Origin: Escherichia phage Ptacy1496
Length of the DNA: 64,000 nt
Sequence record: PQ863253.1
Direction: 5' to 3' (one strand)
The notes below the pieces were generated by a model. It did no database searches and was not told the DNA's origin. It worked only from the letters and a program-made list of their open reading frames with translations. Positions 2,448 to 57,070 of this stretch are shown one piece after another. Made by a program: the position numbers and the translations under genes. The number at the start of each line of letters is the position of its first letter. Position 1 is the stretch's first letter.

Positions 2448-4264
2448 TACTGGCTCATCCATTCTTTACGAAGGTCAGCATTATCTCCCATGAGCATTTC
2501 AAAAAGCTCTTTCCAGTTCTCAGGAAGTTTAACAACATCATATACTGGATTTTGAATCATCTCACGATATTCAGATTTTTCCAAAGAGCCAAGTCCTTTA
2601 ATATAACGGATGCTATGTTTAGGTAGAGCATCTTTAGCACTCTCATATTCAGCGACTGTATAAAACCATTCTTGTTTTTTACCAATCTGTGCGATGATTA
2701 CAGGAGTTTTGACAAAGCGAATTCGTCCTTGCTCAAACAGTTCTGGCCAATTACTAAAAAATCCAAGCAGAGAAGGATAAATGCTTCCTAGACCATCATG
2801 GTCAGCATCAGTCATAATAGCAATATTATGATAATTCAAGTTTTCAGCTTTTTCACCGAGAACTAATCCAGTGATTGCGCAAATATCAAACAGTTCTTTG
2901 TTTTTAAGCATGTCAGCATATGACATACCCCAACTGTTGAGAACTTTACCACGTAATGGATAACCACCGTGAAGTTCTTTATCACGAACATCAATAAGAT
3001 ATCCGATAGCCGAATCACCCTCAGTCAAGAAAAGAGTAGTATCAGCATCTTTACCACAAAGATTCGCTTTAATATGTTTATGAACCTTAGCTTTAGAAGC
3101 CTTTTTAGCTGCTTTAGTTTCTGCTGCTTTTTCTGCCGCTAATTTACGAGCCAAAGCAGCTTCAATAATCGGCATTAGAATTGCTTCATTATTTAGAATA
3201 GCACGTGAAATCTTTTTAGCATCAAGTTGAATATGACTACGGATTTCACCAAATGGAGAAGTCAAACGCTCTTTAGTTTGAGAATCAAATCGCATGTTTT
3301 TCATATCACGGACAAACATAACGATAGTCAAACATTCTTTAACGCGTGCTTTAGTCACATCAATTTTGAACTTACGTTTGATTTGTGGAATAAGGTCTTC
3401 ACAAATATCATCCATAACACAGTCAATGTGATGGCCACCATTCTTAGTGTGAATGTTATTCACATAAGTTAATTGACGAAAACCATCCGGTGAACGACCA
3501 ACCGCAATAGAGCAATTTTCTTGTTCTTGAACGATAGCATGCTCATCATATTGGCGTGCATATTTCTTAAAATTGCCCTGAACCTTTTTACCATTAAAGG
3601 TAAATTGAATATCAGGATAAACTACTGCAAGTGTCTGGAGACGATCTAGTGTAATGTCAAGATAAACTTGGGACAGCTCATTAGTTTCAAATGACATAAA
3701 ATCAGGAATGAAAGTAACGCGAGTTCCTTTCCATTTTCCTGGAATAGTTTCCCATGATTTATTTTCCATGCCATTTGAACAACGAACTACAATATTATTT
3801 TGACCATCACCAGTTTCACCGACAAACATCACAGAAAAAATGTTTGTCAAACTAGAACCAACACCATTCATACCACCGGTGACGCGTTCTTTATCATCAC
3901 CGAAGTTACCACCTGCTTTTGGAATAGTCCAGGCAGCAACAGGACCAGGAATTTCTTCACCAGTAGGTGTTTTGACCATCGCTTGTGGAATACCGCGACC
4001 GTTATCTTCAACTGTTACTTGATTGTTTTTAATAGTAATATTAATTTTATTTGCGAATTTAAACTTAGTACGAATACCTTCATCTACTGAGTTATCGATA
4101 ATTTCATCAATAAGCTTAACAAGACCAGGTACATACTGAACACTTTCCCATTTACCAAACAGAAAGCGCTCATGCATTTCATTAGCAGAAGAGCCAATAT
4201 ACATGCCGCTACGCTTTTTGATATGTTCAATATCGCTCAGAATTTTAATTTCATTCTTAATCAT
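2447..4264 (-). CDS. 39: DNA topoisomerase II large subunit, contiguous (gp39 plus gp60-equivalent C-terminus)
   Basis: 605 aa from ATG; GHKL ATPase and Toprim motifs; C-terminus matches recalled T4 gp60 sequence without interruption. Confidence 0.9.
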   Translation of the reverse strand: MIKNEIKILSDIEHIKKRSGMYIGSSANEMHERFLFGKWESVQYVPGLVKLIDEIIDNSVDEGIRTKFKFANKINITIKNNQVTVEDNGRGIPQAMVKTPTGEEIPGPVAAWTIPKAGGNFGDDKERVTGGMNGVGSSLTNIFSVMFVGETGDGQNNIVVRCSNGMENKSWETIPGKWKGTRVTFIPDFMSFETNELSQVYLDITLDRLQTLAVVYPDIQFTFNGKKVQGNFKKYARQYDEHAIVQEQENCSIAVGRSPDGFRQLTYVNNIHTKNGGHHIDCVMDDICEDLIPQIKRKFKIDVTKARVKECLTIVMFVRDMKNMRFDSQTKERLTSPFGEIRSHIQLDAKKISRAILNNEAILMPIIEAALARKLAAEKAAETKAAKKASKAKVHKHIKANLCGKDADTTLFLTEGDSAIGYLIDVRDKELHGGYPLRGKVLNSWGMSYADMLKNKELFDICAITGLVLGEKAENLNYHNIAIMTDADHDGLGSIYPSLLGFFSNWPELFEQGRIRFVKTPVIIAQIGKKQEWFYTVAEYESAKDALPKHSIRYIKGLGSLEKSEYREMIQNPVYDVVKLPENWKELFEMLMGDNADLRKEWMSQ

Positions 4265-9050: not shown

Positions 9051-10370
9051 TCACACATAAAACACATCATAACGACCACGGGTAACACCAACATAAAGAA
9101 GTTGTTGGGCCAATTCAGCATCTGCATAATGAATACAAGGCGTATAAATGAAAGCACGGTCTACAGACATACCCTGAGCTTTATGGAATGTTGATGCAGG
9201 AAGTGCTTTCACTTTACTAAACTGTGATTTAGCATCCCAAAAATCACTCCATGGAGCTTTTCCGCCTTTGTTCCAATTTTTATAAGTTTCTGCCGTTTTA
9301 CCTAAAAATAGGTTAAACTTATATAACTCTTCATCAGATGAAATTATTTTAATCTTTTCACGATAATATTCATCATCGCCGTAAGTTTCTACTGTTAAAT
9401 CCCAATGACGAATTAAGTATTCTCCAGGAACACCACGAGCTTTAACAAACGTCGATGTATACTCTGCTTCTATAATACGAACTAATTGTCCGTTATTAAA
9501 AATAATTTCTGACACAGGCTTTCCATCAATTTTATATGTTTTAATTAATGGTTCCTGCATTACAATAATTTCACCGACAATAAAATCTTTATCAGTTTCA
9601 AAAATCTTTTTACGAATAATGCTATTTAACTTGTCAACAGATTTATTCGTAAATGCCATTACGCGATTTTCAAACAAATCATCTAGTGATTTTACGATTG
9701 AAAAATAATTTACCATAAAATCGCGTAAAGCGGTATCACCAGTAAATCCACGTACTCCATGCCCGTCAACAATTTTATCATAAATCCACTTACCGTTACG
9801 AACGTCAGTAGCTACATCAATAATAGGAGCATTACTGCGTTTAACTTCAGTGAGTTCACACTGATAAAAATCTTTGTGTGTAAAGAATGGACTGATATAA
9901 GCAGTGTTTTCTCCTGGGTCAACAGGTCTAATCTGCTTATTATCACCTATTCCAATTATAGTACACCACGGCGGGATAGTTGAAAGCAAAATTTTGAAGA
10001 GCTTTCTATCATACATTGACACTTCGTCGCAGATTAATACCCTGCATTTAGCTAAATCTGGTACTTCTTTTTGTTCAAAAAGAACGTTTTCTTCATACGT
10101 AACTGGGTTAATTTTAAGAATACTATGAATAGTACTCGCTTCTTTCCCTGACAGTTTTGAAAGAATCTTTTTAGCCGCATGCGTAGGAGCTGCTAAAATA
10201 ATACCAGTTTCACCCGTAGATATTAAAGCTTCAATGATGAACTTAGTAAGAGTAGTCTTACCAGTACCGGCAGGTCCATTAATAGTTACATGGTGTTTCT
10301 TTTCTTTAATAGCCTTCATAACAATGTTAAAGGCATTTTTCTGGCCTTCGGTCAAATCATCAAATGTCAT
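9051..10370 (-). CDS. dda: Dda DNA helicase (SF1B)
   Basis: 439 aa as in T4 Dda; Walker A GPAGTGKT; N-terminus matches recalled Dda. Confidence 0.93.
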   Translation of the reverse strand: MTFDDLTEGQKNAFNIVMKAIKEKKHHVTINGPAGTGKTTLTKFIIEALISTGETGIILAAPTHAAKKILSKLSGKEASTIHSILKINPVTYEENVLFEQKEVPDLAKCRVLICDEVSMYDRKLFKILLSTIPPWCTIIGIGDNKQIRPVDPGENTAYISPFFTHKDFYQCELTEVKRSNAPIIDVATDVRNGKWIYDKIVDGHGVRGFTGDTALRDFMVNYFSIVKSLDDLFENRVMAFTNKSVDKLNSIIRKKIFETDKDFIVGEIIVMQEPLIKTYKIDGKPVSEIIFNNGQLVRIIEAEYTSTFVKARGVPGEYLIRHWDLTVETYGDDEYYREKIKIISSDEELYKFNLFLGKTAETYKNWNKGGKAPWSDFWDAKSQFSKVKALPASTFHKAQGMSVDRAFIYTPCIHYADAELAQQLLYVGVTRGRYDVFYV

Positions 10371-10678
10371 CGTAAATTCCCTGCAATTGGTATACTAACA
10401 ATACGCCCAGTATCTAAAATTCGCTGATATAATCTTTGCGTGTCTACGTCAGGCTTAACATGTTTAACTTCTATTTTATTAAACCAAAACTTGCGTGGAG
10501 TCTCAACTAGTCTTGGAATTCCCATACCTAAAGCTAGTTTATATTGGTCTTTGAGAGTAGTAAAAACTCTATCAGCAATCTCTCTTTCAAAAAACACAGC
10601 AGGACGATGTTCATCAAGTGGAACTGGCGCCGTAAATCCGTCTTTGTCTCGGTAAACTATCGCATATACATAAACCAT
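10367..10678 (-). CDS. hypothetical protein (dda.1 position)
   Basis: 103 aa ORF overlapping dda start by 4 nt. Confidence 0.55.
   Translation of the reverse strand: MVYVYAIVYRDKDGFTAPVPLDEHRPAVFFEREIADRVFTTLKDQYKLALGMGIPRLVETPRKFWFNKIEVKHVKPDVDTQRLYQRILDTGRIVSIPIAGNLR
10486..10618. repeat. 133-bp direct repeat, copy 1 (inside dda.1-position ORF)
   Basis: about 85-90 percent identical to 10759..10891 by eye. Confidence 0.85.
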
Positions 10679-10729: not shown

Positions 10730-10912
10730 TCAGTTTAAGTTTATCAATAAAAGACAAAAAAACTTGCGTGGAGTCTCAACTAATCTTGGAATTCCCTTAC
10801 CTAAAGCTAATCGATACTGCTCTTTAAGAGTAGTAAATACTTTATCAGCAATATTCCATTCAAAAAATACAGCAGGACGATGTTCATCAAGAACTTTTTC
10901 ACAATTTTCCAA
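10730..10912 (-). pseudogene. truncated duplicate of the dda.1-position gene
   Basis: 60 aa ORF whose residues LDEHRPAVFFE...GIPRLVETPRKF repeat the middle of the 103-aa ORF; lacks its N- and C-terminal parts. Confidence 0.5.
10759..10891. repeat. 133-bp direct repeat, copy 2 (truncated gene copy)
   Basis: near-duplicate of 10486..10618, 273 bp downstream. Confidence 0.85.
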
Positions 10913-17707: not shown

Positions 17708-17908
17708 ATGGCACAAAAATTAATGGCACTTGTTAATGCCATAAAAGGTAATAAAAAACGTATAGCTTTTACTATTTCTGCTATGGTAGGAATTTTACTC
17801 TGGAACTTTATTTTATCACCAATTGCAATTGCGCATGGTGTTAATATTCCAGTAGTTACTCTTGATACATTCGTAGATCTAGCATTTGCTTTAGTTGGGT
17901 TAATTTAA
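17708..17908 (+). CDS. small hydrophobic protein (plus strand, convergent with gene 61)
   Basis: 66 aa with two hydrophobic segments; AGGAGG 5 nt upstream of ATG; only credible plus-strand ORF in window. Confidence 0.4.
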   Translation: MAQKLMALVNAIKGNKKRIAFTISAMVGILLWNFILSPIAIAHGVNIPVVTLDTFVDLAFALVGLI

Positions 17909-18933
17909 ATCTTGGCATATTTAGATAACCGCATTTTAGCCATTAACCCCTGGGCAATATTATTTTTCATATATTCCATAATTTGTTCAGGGGTTGCACC
18001 TTCCTTTCTAATCATATCATTAACATCTTTTGATTTCCAGGGAGATTTATCCCAAAACATAACCCTTTCTCCTGCATCAACTAATTTAGTCATTCGCTTG
18101 ATAGTGTCAGGGTGACGAGGTTCATTATCTAAAACCCACACTCGTCTATCTTTAAATGGAACAACTTCTAGGTCTAATTGACCACCCGTAATAGCTATAC
18201 CATTTTCAATAAAAAGTGAATCTATAGGTCCTTCTAGAACATATACATCACCATCTTTAACTCGTTCGACTCCATATATTTTTGTTGCCTCAGGATAAGC
18301 TTTAATGGTGATATATTTTTGAGGAGCATCTTTCTTTAATGCACGTCCTTGAAAAGACTCAGCTTTTCCATTAGCATTATAAATTGGAATAACAAGACGA
18401 GGCTCAGAAATTTCCTTTTTGTATGTTCCCGGTGCTATGCTATTAACTAATTTAGGCCATTCGGTTGTAAACCAAAGATATTTCCATTTATCCTTTGGAA
18501 TACAACGAGCTTTTACATATTTTATAATTGGATGGTCTTCCGCCAGTTTATCTAATCTAACACATGACGGAAGAGATTTAATTATTTTCTTCTCAGGTTG
18601 CTTAGGAAGTTCTTTAGGTTTTTCTACTGGACGACTTTTACCTTTTTCTTTTCTTATTTCAAAGATATACTCACGATATAAATCGGGTTCAAACTCCTTT
18701 AAATATATTCCGATTGGTGCATGATAGTTACAGTTATAACAATGAATATTTCCTTCATTATTATCACCATAATACCATCCACGAGCTTTATTCTGGTCAG
18801 TTTTTGAATCTCCACAAACAGGACATCTAAACCGCAATTTAAAAGTTGAACTATTATTTACTTGTGTGAATTTAGGTAAATGAGCTAATGCACGGTATGC
18901 AAACTCATTATCAATCCAAGGTATTGATGACAT
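17905..18933 (-). CDS. 61: DNA primase gp61
   Basis: 342 aa as in T4 gp61; zinc ribbon CPVCGDSK...HCYNCNYH and Toprim region. Confidence 0.9.
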   Translation of the reverse strand: MSSIPWIDNEFAYRALAHLPKFTQVNNSSTFKLRFRCPVCGDSKTDQNKARGWYYGDNNEGNIHCYNCNYHAPIGIYLKEFEPDLYREYIFEIRKEKGKSRPVEKPKELPKQPEKKIIKSLPSCVRLDKLAEDHPIIKYVKARCIPKDKWKYLWFTTEWPKLVNSIAPGTYKKEISEPRLVIPIYNANGKAESFQGRALKKDAPQKYITIKAYPEATKIYGVERVKDGDVYVLEGPIDSLFIENGIAITGGQLDLEVVPFKDRRVWVLDNEPRHPDTIKRMTKLVDAGERVMFWDKSPWKSKDVNDMIRKEGATPEQIMEYMKNNIAQGLMAKMRLSKYAKI

Positions 18934-18935
18934 TT

Positions 18936-19100
18936 TTACTCTTCTTTTTCTTTAGATTCCTCTTTCTTCTTTTTAGGAATCTGTTCAGGACCTTTATTTA
19001 CTACAGCACCTGACGTTGTTCCAGTAGAGATATTTTCAGGATTACCACCTGAATCTCCAGCGACCATATCTTCTTTAATAAATTCTTTATATGTTTTCAT
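18936..19100 (-). CDS. small acidic/lysine-rich protein (54 aa, not in ORF track)
   Basis: hand translation MKTYKEFIKEDMVAGDSGGNPENIS...KEEKE; stop 2 nt before gene 61 ATG. Confidence 0.3.
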   Translation of the reverse strand: MKTYKEFIKEDMVAGDSGGNPENISTGTTSGAVVNKGPEQIPKKKKEESKEKEE

Positions 19101-19146
19101 ATTAACCTCTATTCATAAAAGCATTAAAAATTTGGTCATCAATAGA
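19098..19146. repeat. 49-bp direct repeat, copy 1 (3' end of 61.1-position gene)
   Basis: CATATTAACCTCTATTCATAAAAGCATTAAAAATTTGGTCATCAATAGA; 3 mismatches to copy 2. Confidence 0.85.
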
Positions 19147-19458
19147 TGGCGCAGTAATATTTTCTGCATCATTTAGCAAATCATTAATTTCATCAGATAG
19201 CATAACACATGTACCTTTATTTCCTGTAATTGTTACTGCACAATTACGAACGTTTTCTTTATCAAATTTTAGGTTAATATTTTCGTAGTGAAAATCCTTT
19301 AATGCCGAATATATCTTTAAAATGAAATTGTCTTTTACTACAATAAACCCAACCTCACTATTAAAACGCGGTTCATGGAAACTGTAATAAACCTTTTCAT
19401 CTATAAAATCGTATGAAATTTTTTCCATTTTTAAATATGAAAATTCAGAACTGTACAT
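19102..19458 (-). CDS. hypothetical protein (61.1 position)
   Basis: 118 aa; C-terminal SIDDQIFNAFMNRG shared with next ORF. Confidence 0.5.
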   Translation of the reverse strand: MYSSEFSYLKMEKISYDFIDEKVYYSFHEPRFNSEVGFIVVKDNFILKIYSALKDFHYENINLKFDKENVRNCAVTITGNKGTCVMLSDEINDLLNDAENITAPSIDDQIFNAFMNRG

Positions 19459-19505
19459 ATTAACCTTTATTCATAAAAGCATTAAAAATTTGATCGTCAA
19501 TAGAA
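19457..19505. repeat. 49-bp direct repeat, copy 2 (3' end of 61.2-position gene)
   Basis: CATATTAACCTTTATTCATAAAAGCATTAAAAATTTGATCGTCAATAGA. Confidence 0.85.
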
Positions 19506-20092
19506 ACTTTTACTTTAGGCTGTTCTTCAAACGGTAATTCATATCCACATATTACAATTTTGTGATCGATACCAAAATACACAGAAGCAATATTATTAAT
19601 ATTATTTTCAGTGAAATCTAAATCAACATCAATATCTTTTTGACTAGCGCTCAAAGGATAATTAATACGAATAATTCGATTATCTTTAACAAAGATTCCA
19701 CCGACATACTCTGTGCTGCGTTTAAAGTTTACACGTTTCCTAAATGAAAAATATTCAGGTTCTTTATGGGCTCGACTCATAGGGCTTAAAGTGTATTCCG
19801 AATATGAAATATCAAATCCTACACCTTCAATATGAGCCAAAGTATCATGATTAAACCAATTATAATCGTATGCCAAATCCATTAAATTGTAATATGTGAA
19901 AGGCACCGGATTAACATCATATGTTGTACCTTTAAAATCTGCCCAGGCAACGATTTCGTTATCTTTAACAATTACAAAAATTGTGCCAATAAGATATCCA
20001 CGGTTATTTTCATCAGGTGTTATATTATAACATTGTGCATCAGGAAATTTACCGTATTTAAACGGTGGATTTTTGTGCATATAATAAATCAT
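19460..20092 (-). CDS. hypothetical protein (61.2 position; T4 61.2 is the anti-DarT factor AdfA)
   Basis: 210 aa ORF; assignment positional, sequence identity to AdfA not verified. Confidence 0.45.
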   Translation of the reverse strand: MIYYMHKNPPFKYGKFPDAQCYNITPDENNRGYLIGTIFVIVKDNEIVAWADFKGTTYDVNPVPFTYYNLMDLAYDYNWFNHDTLAHIEGVGFDISYSEYTLSPMSRAHKEPEYFSFRKRVNFKRSTEYVGGIFVKDNRIIRINYPLSASQKDIDVDLDFTENNINNIASVYFGIDHKIVICGYELPFEEQPKVKVSIDDQIFNAFMNKG

Positions 20093-20093
20093 A

Positions 20094-20387
20094 TTATTCG
20101 CCTGTGATTTCGGTTACGATATTTTTGTTATTAAAGTTTTTATCGCAATACAGAACATAATTATACTGCATTACACCACCAGACTTAAGTTGTTTTTGCA
20201 CTTCAGCTTTCATTTCAGGACGATCGCGCTCAACAATATTCATAATATCCGCTTCAATTTGAGTTTCAACTTCAGTCTGATCTGCAGTCATAGACCATTC
20301 GCACAAGTCTTTATCATATCCTGCCATAGCAGGCTGAGCAGCACAAGAAGCCAAAGTAAAAATTGTAGCAAAAATAAATTTTTTCAT
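20094..20387 (-). CDS. sp: Spackle periplasmic protein (superinfection exclusion, gp5 lysozyme inhibitor)
   Basis: 97 aa as in T4 Sp; signal peptide MKKFIFATIFTLASCAAQPAMA. Confidence 0.8.
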   Translation of the reverse strand: MKKFIFATIFTLASCAAQPAMAGYDKDLCEWSMTADQTEVETQIEADIMNIVERDRPEMKAEVQKQLKSGGVMQYNYVLYCDKNFNNKNIVTEITGE

Positions 20388-20447: not shown

Positions 20448-20705
20448 CTATTTTAAAACTTCTGCATAATCACATGTTACAAACTGTTTCTCTAGCTTAA
20501 CGATCTTACGAAAGTATCTTTTGCATTGACGAATCTGCCGTTTCGTAGGACGTACAGCAAACTTAATAAATTCCACTCGACCAAATGGAGGGCTTTCTTC
20601 TGCTGGAATATCTAACACCAATTCCCACGTATCCGCAATAAGTGCTTTGAATTGAGTATTTTTCCTGACGTTATACGGAGTAGGTTTAAATAAAACAATA
20701 TGCAT
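20448..20705 (-). CDS. hypothetical protein (61.4 position; T4 61.4 is TifA, a ToxN inhibitor)
   Basis: 85 aa basic ORF; assignment positional only. Confidence 0.4.
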   Translation of the reverse strand: MHIVLFKPTPYNVRKNTQFKALIADTWELVLDIPAEESPPFGRVEFIKFAVRPTKRQIRQCKRYFRKIVKLEKQFVTCDYAEVLK

Positions 20706-20706
20706 A

Positions 20707-20889
20707 TTATCCTCGGCAATCTACTTCACATACTTTCTTGTCATCAATGAAAGCTTTAACTAATGCTTTATTAACTTCAGCATATTGAGTAGTAGCCCAT
20801 TGAACGTCATCTTTCATCATTGTGATTTCTTTAGTAAACATACTTTCATTCTTAAACCACCCCATAAAAACTACCTTTACCAGTTCCAT
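20707..20889 (-). CDS. dmd: Dmd, discriminator of mRNA degradation (RnlA/LsoA antitoxin)
   Basis: 60 aa as in T4 Dmd, immediately downstream of gene 41. Confidence 0.75.
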   Translation of the reverse strand: MELVKVVFMGWFKNESMFTKEITMMKDDVQWATTQYAEVNKALVKAFIDDKKVCEVDCRG

Positions 20890-20947: not shown

Positions 20948-22375
20948 CTAAAATTTTAATTCATTTGCCAAAGCATCTAACTGAGCTCGAGCTGATTCAT
21001 TTCTTTGATAGCGATTCTGTTCAGCCTGAATCTGTTGTGAACCTGCTACTTCACTCACTTCGGTTGGAGTAGAATCTTGTTCAATTTCTACCCATTTTTG
21101 ATTTCCTTTTTGAACACCCATCAAAAACTTATTCCACTTATTCTTATCACCATATCGTGATTTGATTTGCTTAATAAGTTGTTGTTCAGCAGCTGCTAGC
21201 TCCTCGGTTTCAATGACCGCAAGCATAAAATCAGCTGTTGCTGGAAGACCAGCAGATTCTGCGATATCACTCATGTTAACATCAGAAGAGTCCCAAGCTT
21301 GTTTACCGACCTGTGCTGCAGTCCAAAGAACAGTTTCGGTTTCAACAGCCAGAGCACGCAATTCCTCTGCAATAGCTTTAACAGTTGTGTAACTATTTTC
21401 TGAATAAACTCTAATGCGACAAGATTTACAAATACCTAGATAGTCGACAATAATGATTGTTGGAACAAAATTCTTCTTGAGCTTCAATTCGTTTAAAAGT
21501 GATCGAAATGTATTAGCATCTGCCCCACCAGTAGGGTACTGTTTAACGATTAAACGACCAAGAGTAGATTTCTCACGCCATTTTTCCATTTTTCCTTTAT
21601 ACTCAGCGTAAGAAATATGCCCATCATCAATGTCATCAAGAGAAACATCGAGCATATTAGCGTCAATACGTTTAGCACAGACTTCTTCTGCCATTTCCAT
21701 GGAAATGTAAAGAACATTATGTCCAAGCTGCAAATAATCTGCTGCCAATGAACACAGACCTAATGACTTACCAACGTTAACGCCAGCCATTAAAACGTTC
21801 AGTGTTCCAGTCTCAGCTCCACCTTTAGTAATTTTGTTCAGAATTCTGAGTTTAAATGGAACCTTACGAGCTTTATTCATATAAGATAGCCAACGTGCTT
21901 CGTAGTCATCCATCCAATCATGACCAACGTAACTATCAAATGAAATTGATAATGCCTGGCGCATGATGTCAGGAATAGCACCAACATCCGGCATTTTCTT
22001 ATTTCGTTTTTCCGGAGGAAGCTCAGCATTAGTTTGAATTTCGATTATTTTAGACGTAGCATTAAACATCGCCCTTTGCTGAACATATTTTTCTGTTTCT
22101 TTTATTAACCAACTGTGGTCTTCCGGAGAATCAGCTAGTTTTGAAATAAGTGTTTTTACACCAGAATATTCTGTTTCAGTAAATGAACTATTTTCTAATG
22201 CAACATTTAACGCATTAATAGATGGAACGCTATGATACTCATTAACATGAGATTTAATTAATTTGAATGTATTTTTAGCTGGACCACTTTCAAAATATTC
22301 TGAATCCATATATGGCCAAACTTTTGAAAAATAAGCTTGATCAAATATGAGATGAGAAAGAATAATTTCTACCAC
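20948..22375 (-). CDS. 41: replicative DNA helicase gp41 (DnaB-like)
   Basis: 475 aa as in T4 gp41; Walker A GVNVGKS. Confidence 0.95.
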   Translation of the reverse strand: MVEIILSHLIFDQAYFSKVWPYMDSEYFESGPAKNTFKLIKSHVNEYHSVPSINALNVALENSSFTETEYSGVKTLISKLADSPEDHSWLIKETEKYVQQRAMFNATSKIIEIQTNAELPPEKRNKKMPDVGAIPDIMRQALSISFDSYVGHDWMDDYEARWLSYMNKARKVPFKLRILNKITKGGAETGTLNVLMAGVNVGKSLGLCSLAADYLQLGHNVLYISMEMAEEVCAKRIDANMLDVSLDDIDDGHISYAEYKGKMEKWREKSTLGRLIVKQYPTGGADANTFRSLLNELKLKKNFVPTIIIVDYLGICKSCRIRVYSENSYTTVKAIAEELRALAVETETVLWTAAQVGKQAWDSSDVNMSDIAESAGLPATADFMLAVIETEELAAAEQQLIKQIKSRYGDKNKWNKFLMGVQKGNQKWVEIEQDSTPTEVSEVAGSQQIQAEQNRYQRNESARAQLDALANELKF

Positions 22376-26365: not shown

Positions 26366-26632
26366 TTAAAACTTAACAAATAACTTTAAAGCATCTTCAG
26401 TTTTAATTCCTTTTCTTACACCCATAACAGAAATTGGCTGTGACTGAAATTTTCCTTTACCATTATAAATTTCTAATCCAGTCACCATTCCATTTTGTTC
26501 TATAATACCGTAAGTGTTACCTTCATTTTCAAATTCTTTAACTTTAAAAAGTTTATTCGCTTTTTCTGCGTTAACAACTTTTAAATTTTGAATAAAATTA
26601 GTTTGAATATTTTTCATTTTGTGTTCCTCCAT
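26366..26632 (-). CDS. hypothetical protein
   Basis: 88 aa ORF directly downstream of early promoter cassette. Confidence 0.45.
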   Translation of the reverse strand: MEEHKMKNIQTNFIQNLKVVNAEKANKLFKVKEFENEGNTYGIIEQNGMVTGLEIYNGKGKFQSQPISVMGVRKGIKTEDALKLFVKF

Positions 26633-26677
26633 AGTTGATAGTTGTATAGTACCACAGAGGAACGGTCTTGTAAACAG
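26613..26677. repeat. 65-bp promoter/5'UTR cassette, copy 1
   Basis: near-identical (1 mismatch) to 51560..51622. Confidence 0.85.
26646..26675 (-). promoter_or_regulatory. phage early promoter (TACTAT -10)
   Basis: plus strand ATAGTA-18nt-GTAAAC. Confidence 0.6.
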
Positions 26678-51034: not shown

Positions 51035-51562
51035 TTATGCGAGTACCGTCTTTAACCGTTCTTCAAACTTCCGAAGAGTATTCTGGCGTTCAGCTCTTTG
51101 CTTTTTGTAAGTTTCAATACGCTCTGAAATGAGAGTGTATCGTTCATTTACTGATTCTTTCATAAAATCAGGAATTTCACGAGAAGCTTTAATCTCGTCA
51201 AATTTATCAATAACAGCTTGCTCTTCAGCAATTAAGTTATCATACATCAAAATATCTTTCTTGATGAACTCAATATCTTCTTGAGTTACACGAGATAATT
51301 TAGATGCTTTATCCTTTTTGTACTGTTCGTTAGTATCACGAGACCAGTGTAATGTACGATTTTTATTCGTATTCTTATAAATTTCTACAATACCAATCTC
51401 ATCAATAATAACGATCCAATTCCAACGGGATTTGTAAATTTGTCCTCCATCAACCGTGATTTCACCTCCGATTGAGATGTCATTAAAGAACTTGCTTTGT
51501 GCTTCAGATTTAAATTTACCATCGTTGTAATTTACCAGGTTGAAAATATCTTTAGCGTTCAT
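51035..51562 (-). CDS. hypothetical protein with C-terminal coiled coil
   Basis: ORF track 51035..51622; start moved to MNAKDIFNLV... with GGAGG Shine-Dalgarno; 175 aa. Confidence 0.5.
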   Translation of the reverse strand: MNAKDIFNLVNYNDGKFKSEAQSKFFNDISIGGEITVDGGQIYKSRWNWIVIIDEIGIVEIYKNTNKNRTLHWSRDTNEQYKKDKASKLSRVTQEDIEFIKKDILMYDNLIAEEQAVIDKFDEIKASREIPDFMKESVNERYTLISERIETYKKQRAERQNTLRKFEERLKTVLA

Positions 51563-51622
51563 TTTGTGTTCCTCCGTAGTTGATAGTTGTATAGTACCAC
51601 AGAGGAACGGTCTTGTAAACAA
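51560..51622. repeat. 65-bp promoter/5'UTR cassette, copy 2
   Basis: near-identical to 26613..26677. Confidence 0.85.
51591..51620 (-). promoter_or_regulatory. phage early promoter (TACTAT -10)
   Basis: plus strand ATAGTA-18nt-GTAAAC. Confidence 0.6.
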
Positions 51623-56882: not shown

Positions 56883-57070
56883 TATTCCACCACATATGAA
56901 AGAGAGAATATTGCACACGCCATATGAGTTGCAGCTTCATCACACATATCATAACGTTTCTTAAGAAGTTCTACAAGTTCTTCACTAGTAACTTCATCCA
57001 TGTCGACGAAAAAATCACCATTAATGATGACGTAGATATTTCCTTCTTGATTAAGTGCTTCAATTTTCAT
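56882..57070 (-). CDS. hypothetical protein
   Basis: ORF track 56882..57115; start moved to MKIEALNQ with GAGGAG Shine-Dalgarno. Confidence 0.4.

Follow-up and report, generated by a model that had tools for sequence, protein, structure and literature searches.

In the 64,000-nucleotide (nt) stretch of the genome of Escherichia phage Ptacy1496 (PQ863253.1) that we analyzed, called the window below, two adjacent genes, adfA and an extra open reading frame (ORF) named here orf118, end in the same C-terminal tail encoded by a 49-nt direct repeat. The two genes fill the slot between sp and gene 61.1. We propose, with a probability of about 0.7, that the repeat is the coding sequence of a constant tail combined with signals that couple it to the following gene, that the copies of the repeat are recombination sites of a slot for exchangeable cassettes, and that the partner of the tail lies outside the body of the protein carrying it. 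The window is part of a Tequatrovirus (T4-like) genome; the locus was 99.6% identical to that of Escherichia phage vB_Eco_Solly and was matched by 664 phage records. Coordinates are given on the plus strand of the window; all genes at the locus are on the minus strand.

A sequence-only reading of the window had described a 49-bp repeat with three mismatches, its copies 359 bp apart, each carrying the ribosome binding site (RBS) and the start codon of the next gene. The repeat was recovered as described, save for the spacing, which is 358 nt from start to start. A repeat search and a pattern search of the window allowing three mismatches found exactly two copies, 19098-19146 and 19456-19504, identical at 46 of 49 positions, while the chance expectation from 100 dinucleotide-preserving shuffles was 0 matches. 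On the coding strand both copies read TCT ATT GAY GAY CAA ATT TTT AAT GCT TTT ATG AAT A(G/A)A GGT TAA T ATG, which encodes the 14 residues S-I-D-D-Q-I-F-N-A-F-M-N-(R/K)-G and continues with the stop codon, a single spacer base and the start codon ATG of the following gene. The three mismatches fall in two synonymous Asp codons and in an AGA/AAA (R/K) codon. The upstream copy (19456-19504) consists of the last 14 codons of adfA (SIDDQIFNAFMNKG, 19463-19504), TAA (19460-19462), spacer T (19459) and the ATG of orf118 (19456-19458). The downstream copy (19098-19146) has the last 14 codons of orf118 (SIDDQIFNAFMNRG, 19105-19146), TAA (19102-19104), spacer T (19101) and the ATG of 61.1 (19098-19100). 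The RBS could be read in the copies as (A/C)GAGGT ahead of stop and ATG; the downstream copy carries the Shine-Dalgarno sequence AGAGGT, and in the upstream copy the R to K change weakens it to AAAGGT.

The identity of the genes had to be revised. They had been taken for 61.1 and 61.2, with the adfA position lying between the repeats; we saw that the upstream member of the pair is adfA itself, which is gene 61.2 (19460-20092, 210 aa, phrog_3781), and that the gene enclosed by the repeats is orf118 (19102-19458, 118 aa, phrog_4122). The true 61.1 (18936-19100, 54 aa), translationally coupled to orf118 and forming the right-hand conserved flank of the slot, lacks the tail, ending in KEKEE. In T4 no other gene intervenes between 61.2 and 61.1.

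The product of adfA, the anti-DarT factor A, scored 460 bits over positions 1-211 of the Pfam model PF23813 (gathering cut-off 27 bits) and has the two-domain architecture of ~210 aa. orf118 also passed the cut-off, with 31.9 bits, but along profile positions 113-211 only; at 118 aa it has nothing matching positions 1-112 and thus lacks the two-domain architecture. BLASTP aligned it to AdfA residues 111-210 with 36% identity (E 4e-11), and even with the 14-residue tail removed the two bodies were still related in a profile-profile comparison by hhalign (P 1e-3 over 39 columns around a VKDN hairpin). Because of these BLASTP, Pfam and tail-less profile matches, we consider that orf118 is, as far as sequence comparison goes, a single-domain paralog of the C-terminal half of AdfA and not an unrelated gene that merely shares the tail. 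Thus it resembles AdfA (gp61.2 of T4 and RB69) in the C-terminal half of the profile, in the slot and in the tail, and differs in having one domain instead of two and in not being counted as adfA in the literature. A tblastn search with orf118 returned 337 phage records; a word-indexed protein search returned close relatives only. Both adfA and orf118 have their place between sp and 61.1, synteny having been checked in T4, T2, KMB23, RB6 and 31 IMG/VR loci. orf118 is present in T2, a phage described as having no adfA homolog (PMC11257639), and absent from T4.

Two observations on the tails of these proteins were set aside. A degenerate tail, MDLAYDYNWFNHD, suspected in the N-terminal half of AdfA was unsupported by hhalign, which aligned only the VKDN hairpin. 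In Shigella phage ESh36 (locus L051, ON528746, 1470-1545) a frameshift immediately ahead of the tail leaves the tail DNA of orf118 in place but puts it out of frame; as this record carries the flag UNVERIFIED, the 'tail-less' orf118 is likely to be due to a sequencing error.

To what extent the tail is a constant feature of the slot could be seen in the 31 IMG/VR loci, which were fetched by anchoring on the neighboring primase to avoid bias; DNA-pattern scans required the exact peptide, and the primase-anchored loci alone are unbiased. In every locus of four genus-level groups (Tequatrovirus, Mosig-like, JS98-like and a group represented by locus L017) the gene or genes directly after sp end in DDQIFNAFM. 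The bodies bearing this tail are AdfA of 208, 210 or 216 aa, orf118-like proteins of 117-122 aa and a 145-aa family, phrog_8539, whose body showed no detectable similarity to AdfA or orf118 in profile-profile comparison (P >= 0.1) and which matched them through the tail alone. When 1.84 billion representatives were searched exhaustively with HMMER, the yield was just three more small families, all ending in DDQIFNAFM(N/K)RG; two large proteins also returned were discarded as low-complexity noise. The general form of the tail is S/A-I/V-DDQIFNAFM-N/K-R/K-G/D. In three more distant groups, with primase 63-65% identical, the gene after sp ends in SDD(E/D)IFNAWMKR, SVDDQIFNFWIGHV or DIDSQIFN(Y/C)WMKK; the slot proteins of these groups matched the others through the tail only, and the core common to all diverged tails is D-x-[QED]-I-F-N-x-[FW]-[MI]. 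The exact-peptide scan found the peptide encoded in 12 metagenomic contigs, all T-even-like, and in none of 185,579 bacterial species representatives; given this absence from bacterial genomes, mimicry of a host peptide was dropped as a lead.

When five families were aligned, the bodies were 16-39% identical with six invariant columns, the linker ahead of the tail varied from 9 to 24 residues, and the tail was identical at 10-12 of 12 positions. Scores against PF23813 stayed under the cut-off for P0022 (23 bits), P0023 (26), P0025 (26.1) and the 145-aa family (16.1); P0022, P0023 and the 145-aa family matched through the tail only, and residues 35-120 of P0025 aligned to profile positions 134-211. 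One could argue that the tail is simply an ordinary C-terminal helix of one ancient fold, belonging to a domain core or an oligomer interface, with all slot proteins being its diverged homologs. Indeed, orf118, P0022, P0023, P0025 and the C-terminal half of AdfA are demonstrably homologous, sharing the VKDN hairpin and an NV-x-x-CA helix; AlphaFold2 predicted a helix for the tail (residues 198-207 of AdfA, following a low-confidence linker 188-196, in a model of moderate quality, with a predicted local distance difference test score, pLDDT, of 65); and the sequence suggests a broad hydrophobic face made of I, I, F, A, F and M. But invariance extends to the polar residues D, D, Q and N, the linker is variable in length and predicted with low confidence, and the tail is identical on bodies that are 16-20% identical or have no detectable similarity. 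We regard the ancient-fold explanation as unlikely.

We favor instead a tail that most likely contacts something outside its own protein, either a conserved partner or another tail-bearing subunit, because bodies so different could hardly all pack the same helix alike. An invariant helix, polar residues included, on a linker of variable length, attached to bodies barely related or unrelated, would have the layout of a tethered interaction peptide. Structure searches gave no further hint: a PDB sequence search with AdfA found nothing relevant, and Foldseek with the AdfA model found nothing in PDB (best E 0.09, template modeling score ~0.1) and only the family itself in BFVD. The AlphaFold2 model of orf118 was unreliable (pLDDT 40).

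Substitutions within the tail DNA tell which of its properties is kept. Across the four closer groups, the 27-nt core has undergone at least seven substitutions, all of them synonymous, on a background of 3.67 synonymous and 23.33 non-synonymous sites (P ~9e-7). Because all these substitutions are synonymous, the pattern indicates that the core is selected as a peptide, under purifying selection. Of the earlier suggestion that a C-terminal peptide is shared, the conservation therefore stood. Rather than an appendage common to two otherwise unrelated genes, however, the tail is in this genome the stretch of a homologous domain that is conserved best, and beyond this genome it is the hallmark of every gene in the slot after sp.

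The last two codons of the tail, (A/C)GA GGT, double as the GAGGT Shine-Dalgarno sequence of the following gene, and the string GGT-TAA-T-ATG was universal in the four closer groups whatever gene comes next. The distant groups have an ATGA stop/start overlap and no GAGGT, while keeping the peptide core. Since they keep the core without GAGGT, the R-G end is tied to the RBS and the core is not.

Could the repeat then be conserved mainly as a DNA or RNA regulatory module, a middle promoter dependent on MotA together with RBS and start codon, with the peptide being incidental? Middle promoters of this kind have a (a/t)(a/t)(a/t)TGCTT(t/c)A box ~12 bp upstream of a TAnnnT -10 element; the possible counterpart in each copy, on the minus strand, is TGCTTTT-N12-TAATAT at 19099-19123 and 19457-19481, and written as TAATGCTTTT-N12-TAATAT it has one mismatch in the MotA box. 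Against an expectation of 14.6, the window holds 32 matches to the pattern, a ~2-fold enrichment, most of them on the gene strand, and the genome record of phage Lutter (MT682714) annotates a 27-nt promoter in each repeat copy. The perfect GAGGT encoded by the Arg-Gly codons and the universal stop-N-ATG arrangement fit such a module as well. Outside Tequatrovirus, though, the TGCTT box is lost through GCA or GCC codons and the -10 element becomes TGATAT in some groups, with the peptide invariant; the exclusively synonymous changes of the core and the persistence of IFN-x-[FW]-[MI] in distant genera with another stop/start overlap and no GAGGT argue in the same direction. Furthermore, a transcript from this -10 element would begin downstream of the ATG of the next gene. 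In the T4 transcription literature searched we found no mapped promoter within the repeat; PmuvsX is the only middle promoter named for this block, which is not MotA-dependent (PMC6024815). We consider the regulatory module quite unlikely as the main reason for conservation. A promoter of MotA type in the copies is possible as an extra function, but not as the explanation.

In every tandem pair we saw, the upstream copy of the tail carries a change weakening the Shine-Dalgarno sequence ahead of the orf118-type gene, either AGA to AAA (R to K) or GGT to GAT (G to D), in at least three independent forms: in the window at 19463-19468 and in loci L052 (KMB23), L017, L018, L058 and L062. Tails of single genes almost always retain (A/C)GAGGT, with locus L019 as the exception.

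We turn to the repeat as a recombination site. Five states of the slot were seen in Tequatroviruses: empty, as in RB6, which keeps sp-TAA-TT-AGAGGCTAATATG-61.1; orf118 only, as in T2 and in the metagenomic locus L007, where orf118 is flanked by AGAGGTTAGTATG and AGAGGTTAATATG; T4-type adfA208 only, as in T4; adfA208 with orf118, as in KMB23, RB33, slur03 and L062; and adfA210 with orf118, as in the window. Their shares were approximately 3, 22, 23, 8 and 17%, respectively, with the Mosig-type adfA216 making up most of the rest; these are rough figures from 60 rows taken as an even-step sample of 657 records. The single 61.2 tail of T4 is base-for-base identical to the downstream copy of the window. 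When we joined T4 adfA208, orf118 and 61.1 into a synthetic sequence, it matched natural genomes without interruption at 96-98%; therefore T4-type and KMB23-type genomes differ by exactly orf118 and one repeat copy, and the same holds for T4 compared with RB33 and L062. The L017 group, a second genus, independently repeats the pattern of presence and absence bounded by tails: L017 and L018 have the 145-aa gene (tail KRD), an orf118-like gene (tail KRG) and then the next gene, and L019 is without the orf118-like gene, again a difference of exactly one gene and one copy.

Replacement of alleles ends at the same places. The window and locus L003 diverge by ~1% across adfA, ~18% in the orf118 block (orf118 body, 19150-19455, or 3546-3851 in oriented coordinates) and ~2-3% beyond; the divergent block starts with the codon that follows the orf118 ATG and stops at the final codon ahead of the downstream tail, so that the copies bound it within a few bases. 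Thus, the suggestion that the repeat can drive gain or loss of the intervening gene was borne out both by these replacements and by the presence/absence differences. The window adfA appears to be an import: its body is 80-96% identical in nucleotides to the Mosig-like (RB69-group) allele of locus L005 against no more than 51-60% identity with T4 at its 5' end, and this Mosig-like-type allele is joined to a linker and tail of Tequatrovirus type. The last ~25 nt of sp (20094-20118) are of Mosig-like type with the rest T4-like, marking the left mosaic breakpoint; the other breakpoint is near the linker and tail. In addition, of the 42 nt of the tail, 1.8 differ between paralogs within Tequatrovirus and 5.5-7 between orthologs of different genera, and L017 shows a conversion tract relative to L018.

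These observations invite the view that the tail is only a recombination linker, kept identical by frequent exchange or gene conversion and having no function as a peptide. Breakpoints falling at the copies, tails homogenized within Tequatrovirus, the conversion tract in L017 and the apparent import of adfA between genera all fit it, and in the PeSL (promoter-early stem-loop) cassettes of T4-type phages repeat-mediated shuffling is already on record (PMC2839356). Homogenization alone, however, would not produce many synonymous and zero non-synonymous differences between genera, nor would it keep the peptide recognizable in groups with diverged DNA and another gene layout; also, T4 recombines at microhomologies of 6-10 bp in the same island (PMC9391042), and a selected linker of 49 nt would be unneeded. 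We find the linker-only view very improbable.

The invariant-tail slot that we prefer works as follows. The slot between sp and 61.1 holds one or two interchangeable genes whose bodies evolve very fast or are unrelated, each protein ending, after a variable linker, in the same short amphipathic helix. As all cassettes have the same ~49 nt at their end, and a 13-nt version of the 3' end of these can also stand in front of a cassette, homologous recombination between tail copies deletes, inserts or replaces cassettes; it also homogenizes the tails within Tequatrovirus. The 13-nt module that precedes orf118 in T2-type phages may be what is left of a lost adfA tail, or no more than an initiation region held in common. 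Candidate contacts of the tail are another tail-bearing subunit, a replication or single-stranded DNA hub, or the conserved catalytic groove of DarT-type toxins, in which the helix would neutralize in the manner of an antitoxin. The most economical model would combine a constant neutralizing or anchoring helix with a variable specificity body, in which case orf118 would be a second anti-toxin factor.

One could speculate further and see here modular anti-defence cassettes, in which DDQIFNAFM is a constant warhead or anchor helix, the bodies provide specificity, the tail DNA with RBS and start codon serves as a homology arm, and the single-domain proteins of orf118 type, which T2 has although it is reported to lack adfA, are unrecognized inhibitors of other toxins. 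The invariant surface bound would be the catalytic groove of DarT-type ADP-ribosyltransferases or a replisome or single-stranded DNA hub, and co-infecting T-even phages would swap, stack or drop specificity modules via the tail DNA. This extension is possible but tentative.

Several points weigh against the slot with an externally binding tail. DarT1, the one known partner of AdfA, is discriminated by a residue of the body, at R164H, and not by the tail (PMC11257639). The AlphaFold2 models are mediocre (pLDDT 65 and 40), and packing of the tail within its own molecule is possible. The 145-aa and distant bodies may be homologous but diverged past detection, the tail then being the slowest-evolving element of one fold. 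Identity of tail DNA within Tequatrovirus could in part come from codon bias, the overlapping RBS or the possible middle promoter and not from gene conversion. None of the 60 evenly sampled records had adfA210 directly followed by 61.1, a recombinant that may yet exist, and each indel event may have been either an insertion or a deletion.

The site of discrimination deserves a closer look. In RB69 AdfA the R164H change switches binding of DarT1, and alleles that bind and neutralize the DarT1 toxin have His at the equivalent position (PMC11257639). T4-type alleles have His there, and Mosig-like alleles Arg or His. By alignment, the window AdfA has Asn167 (19592-19594) and orf118 has Asn72 at this position; the Asn of the window is a third natural variant at an arms-race site, neither the neutralizing His nor the Arg of RB69.

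Among known systems, the closest in behavior are the PeSL cassettes of T4-type phages (PMC2839356; Comeau et al. 2014, PMC4122927), in which repeats of ~50 nt flank non-essential, variable ORFs in plastic regions and recombination of nearby copies causes insertion, deletion and replacement, with small circles expected; indels and replacements bounded by flanking repeats were found here as well. PeSLs, however, are intergenic and consist of a sigma-70 promoter and a terminator stem-loop, whereas the present repeat is made of a coding peptide with RBS, stop and start. Between 18800 and 20500 we found no terminator-like sites, and 0 of the 14 promoter-like sites of this interval fell in either copy, so the definition of PeSL does not apply. 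A second parallel is in the same island, two genes upstream: T4 was shown experimentally to change both the content and the dosage of its anti-defence genes by recombining between short direct repeats at dmd-tifA (Srikant et al. 2022, PMC9391042). The amplifications and deletions there arose in the laboratory at chance microhomologies of 6-10 bp, whereas here a functional repeat of 49 nt sits at natural, recurrent polymorphisms.

Type II antitoxins such as CcdA, Phd and RelB have a flexible C-terminal helix that neutralizes the toxin, and many antitoxins are built in this way. By analogy, the folded body, flexible linker and short amphipathic C-terminal helix of the slot proteins could be compared with them, all the more as AdfA acts by binding a toxin; there is no relationship in sequence or fold, however, and the known specificity of AdfA maps to its body (R164H). 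The clamp-binding tails of T4 gp43 and gp55 are likewise acidic and hydrophobic C-terminal peptides with an S-(L/I)-D start, carried by proteins whose genes are among those for replication, but they read LDFL(F/Y) and not DDQIFNAFM; the window gp43 ends in SLDFLFG. On sequence, the T4 clamp (gp45)-binding motif (S/T)LDFL(F/Y) was rejected as an identity for the tail.

AdfA itself, with the tail inside the Pfam model, and shuffling mediated by PeSL repeats (PMC2839356) were already known. Three things were not found described in the literature searched: the single-domain paralog in T2, a phage called adfA-less; the constancy of the tail on several body families throughout the subfamily; and its double role as selected peptide and crossover site. 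AdfA is one of few known phage inhibitors of toxin-antitoxin defence. A nine-residue peptide that stays invariant while the protein and even the family change points to a specific molecular part, and T2-type phages with the single-domain relative enlarge the AdfA family. Tail DNA serving as the crossover for gain, loss and allele replacement is a concrete example, at the level of sequence, of the way in which co-infecting phages reshuffle an anti-defence island, in a mode distinct from the previously described promoter/terminator cassettes. For phage engineering and therapy cocktails, it matters that any phage with both genes has a built-in 358-bp interval prone to deletion.

The slot lies within the anti-defence island dmd-tifA-sp-adfA. 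sp (spackle, 20094-20387) is its left-hand flank, with 61.4/tifA (20448-20705), dmd (20707-20889) and gene 41 (20948-22375) upstream of it; on the other side, next to 61.1, is primase 61 (17905-18933); all are on the minus strand. Phages of the JS98-like and L017-like groups (loci L017-L026 and L032) carry two genes of the TifA family, which flank sp and the tail gene: the second of them, a DUF7279 (TifA/61.4-like) paralog of 73 aa at ~3397-3618 in each locus, is translationally coupled to the tail gene. In the T2-type metagenomic contig L007, at ~2800-3170, 61.4 and sp are separated by an insertion of ~300 nt that contributes a small additional ORF, and the C-terminus of 61.4 is altered; this insertion is another plastic point in the same island.

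Other direct repeats were seen elsewhere in the window. A local one, 133 nt long and 89% identical, occupies 10486-10618 and 10759-10891, 273 nt apart; its downstream copy looks like a partial, probably non-functional duplicate of the middle of a 103-aa ORF (10367-10678, minus strand) located between dda and the next gene. Another, of 64 nt, is found at 26613-26676 and 51558-51621, 98% identical and 25 kb apart, with a third, weaker copy at 57066. It ends in GTAAACA, common to many early-promoter-like repeats in the window, and because of this shared end it is probably a module of the PeSL type comprising a promoter and 5' untranslated region.

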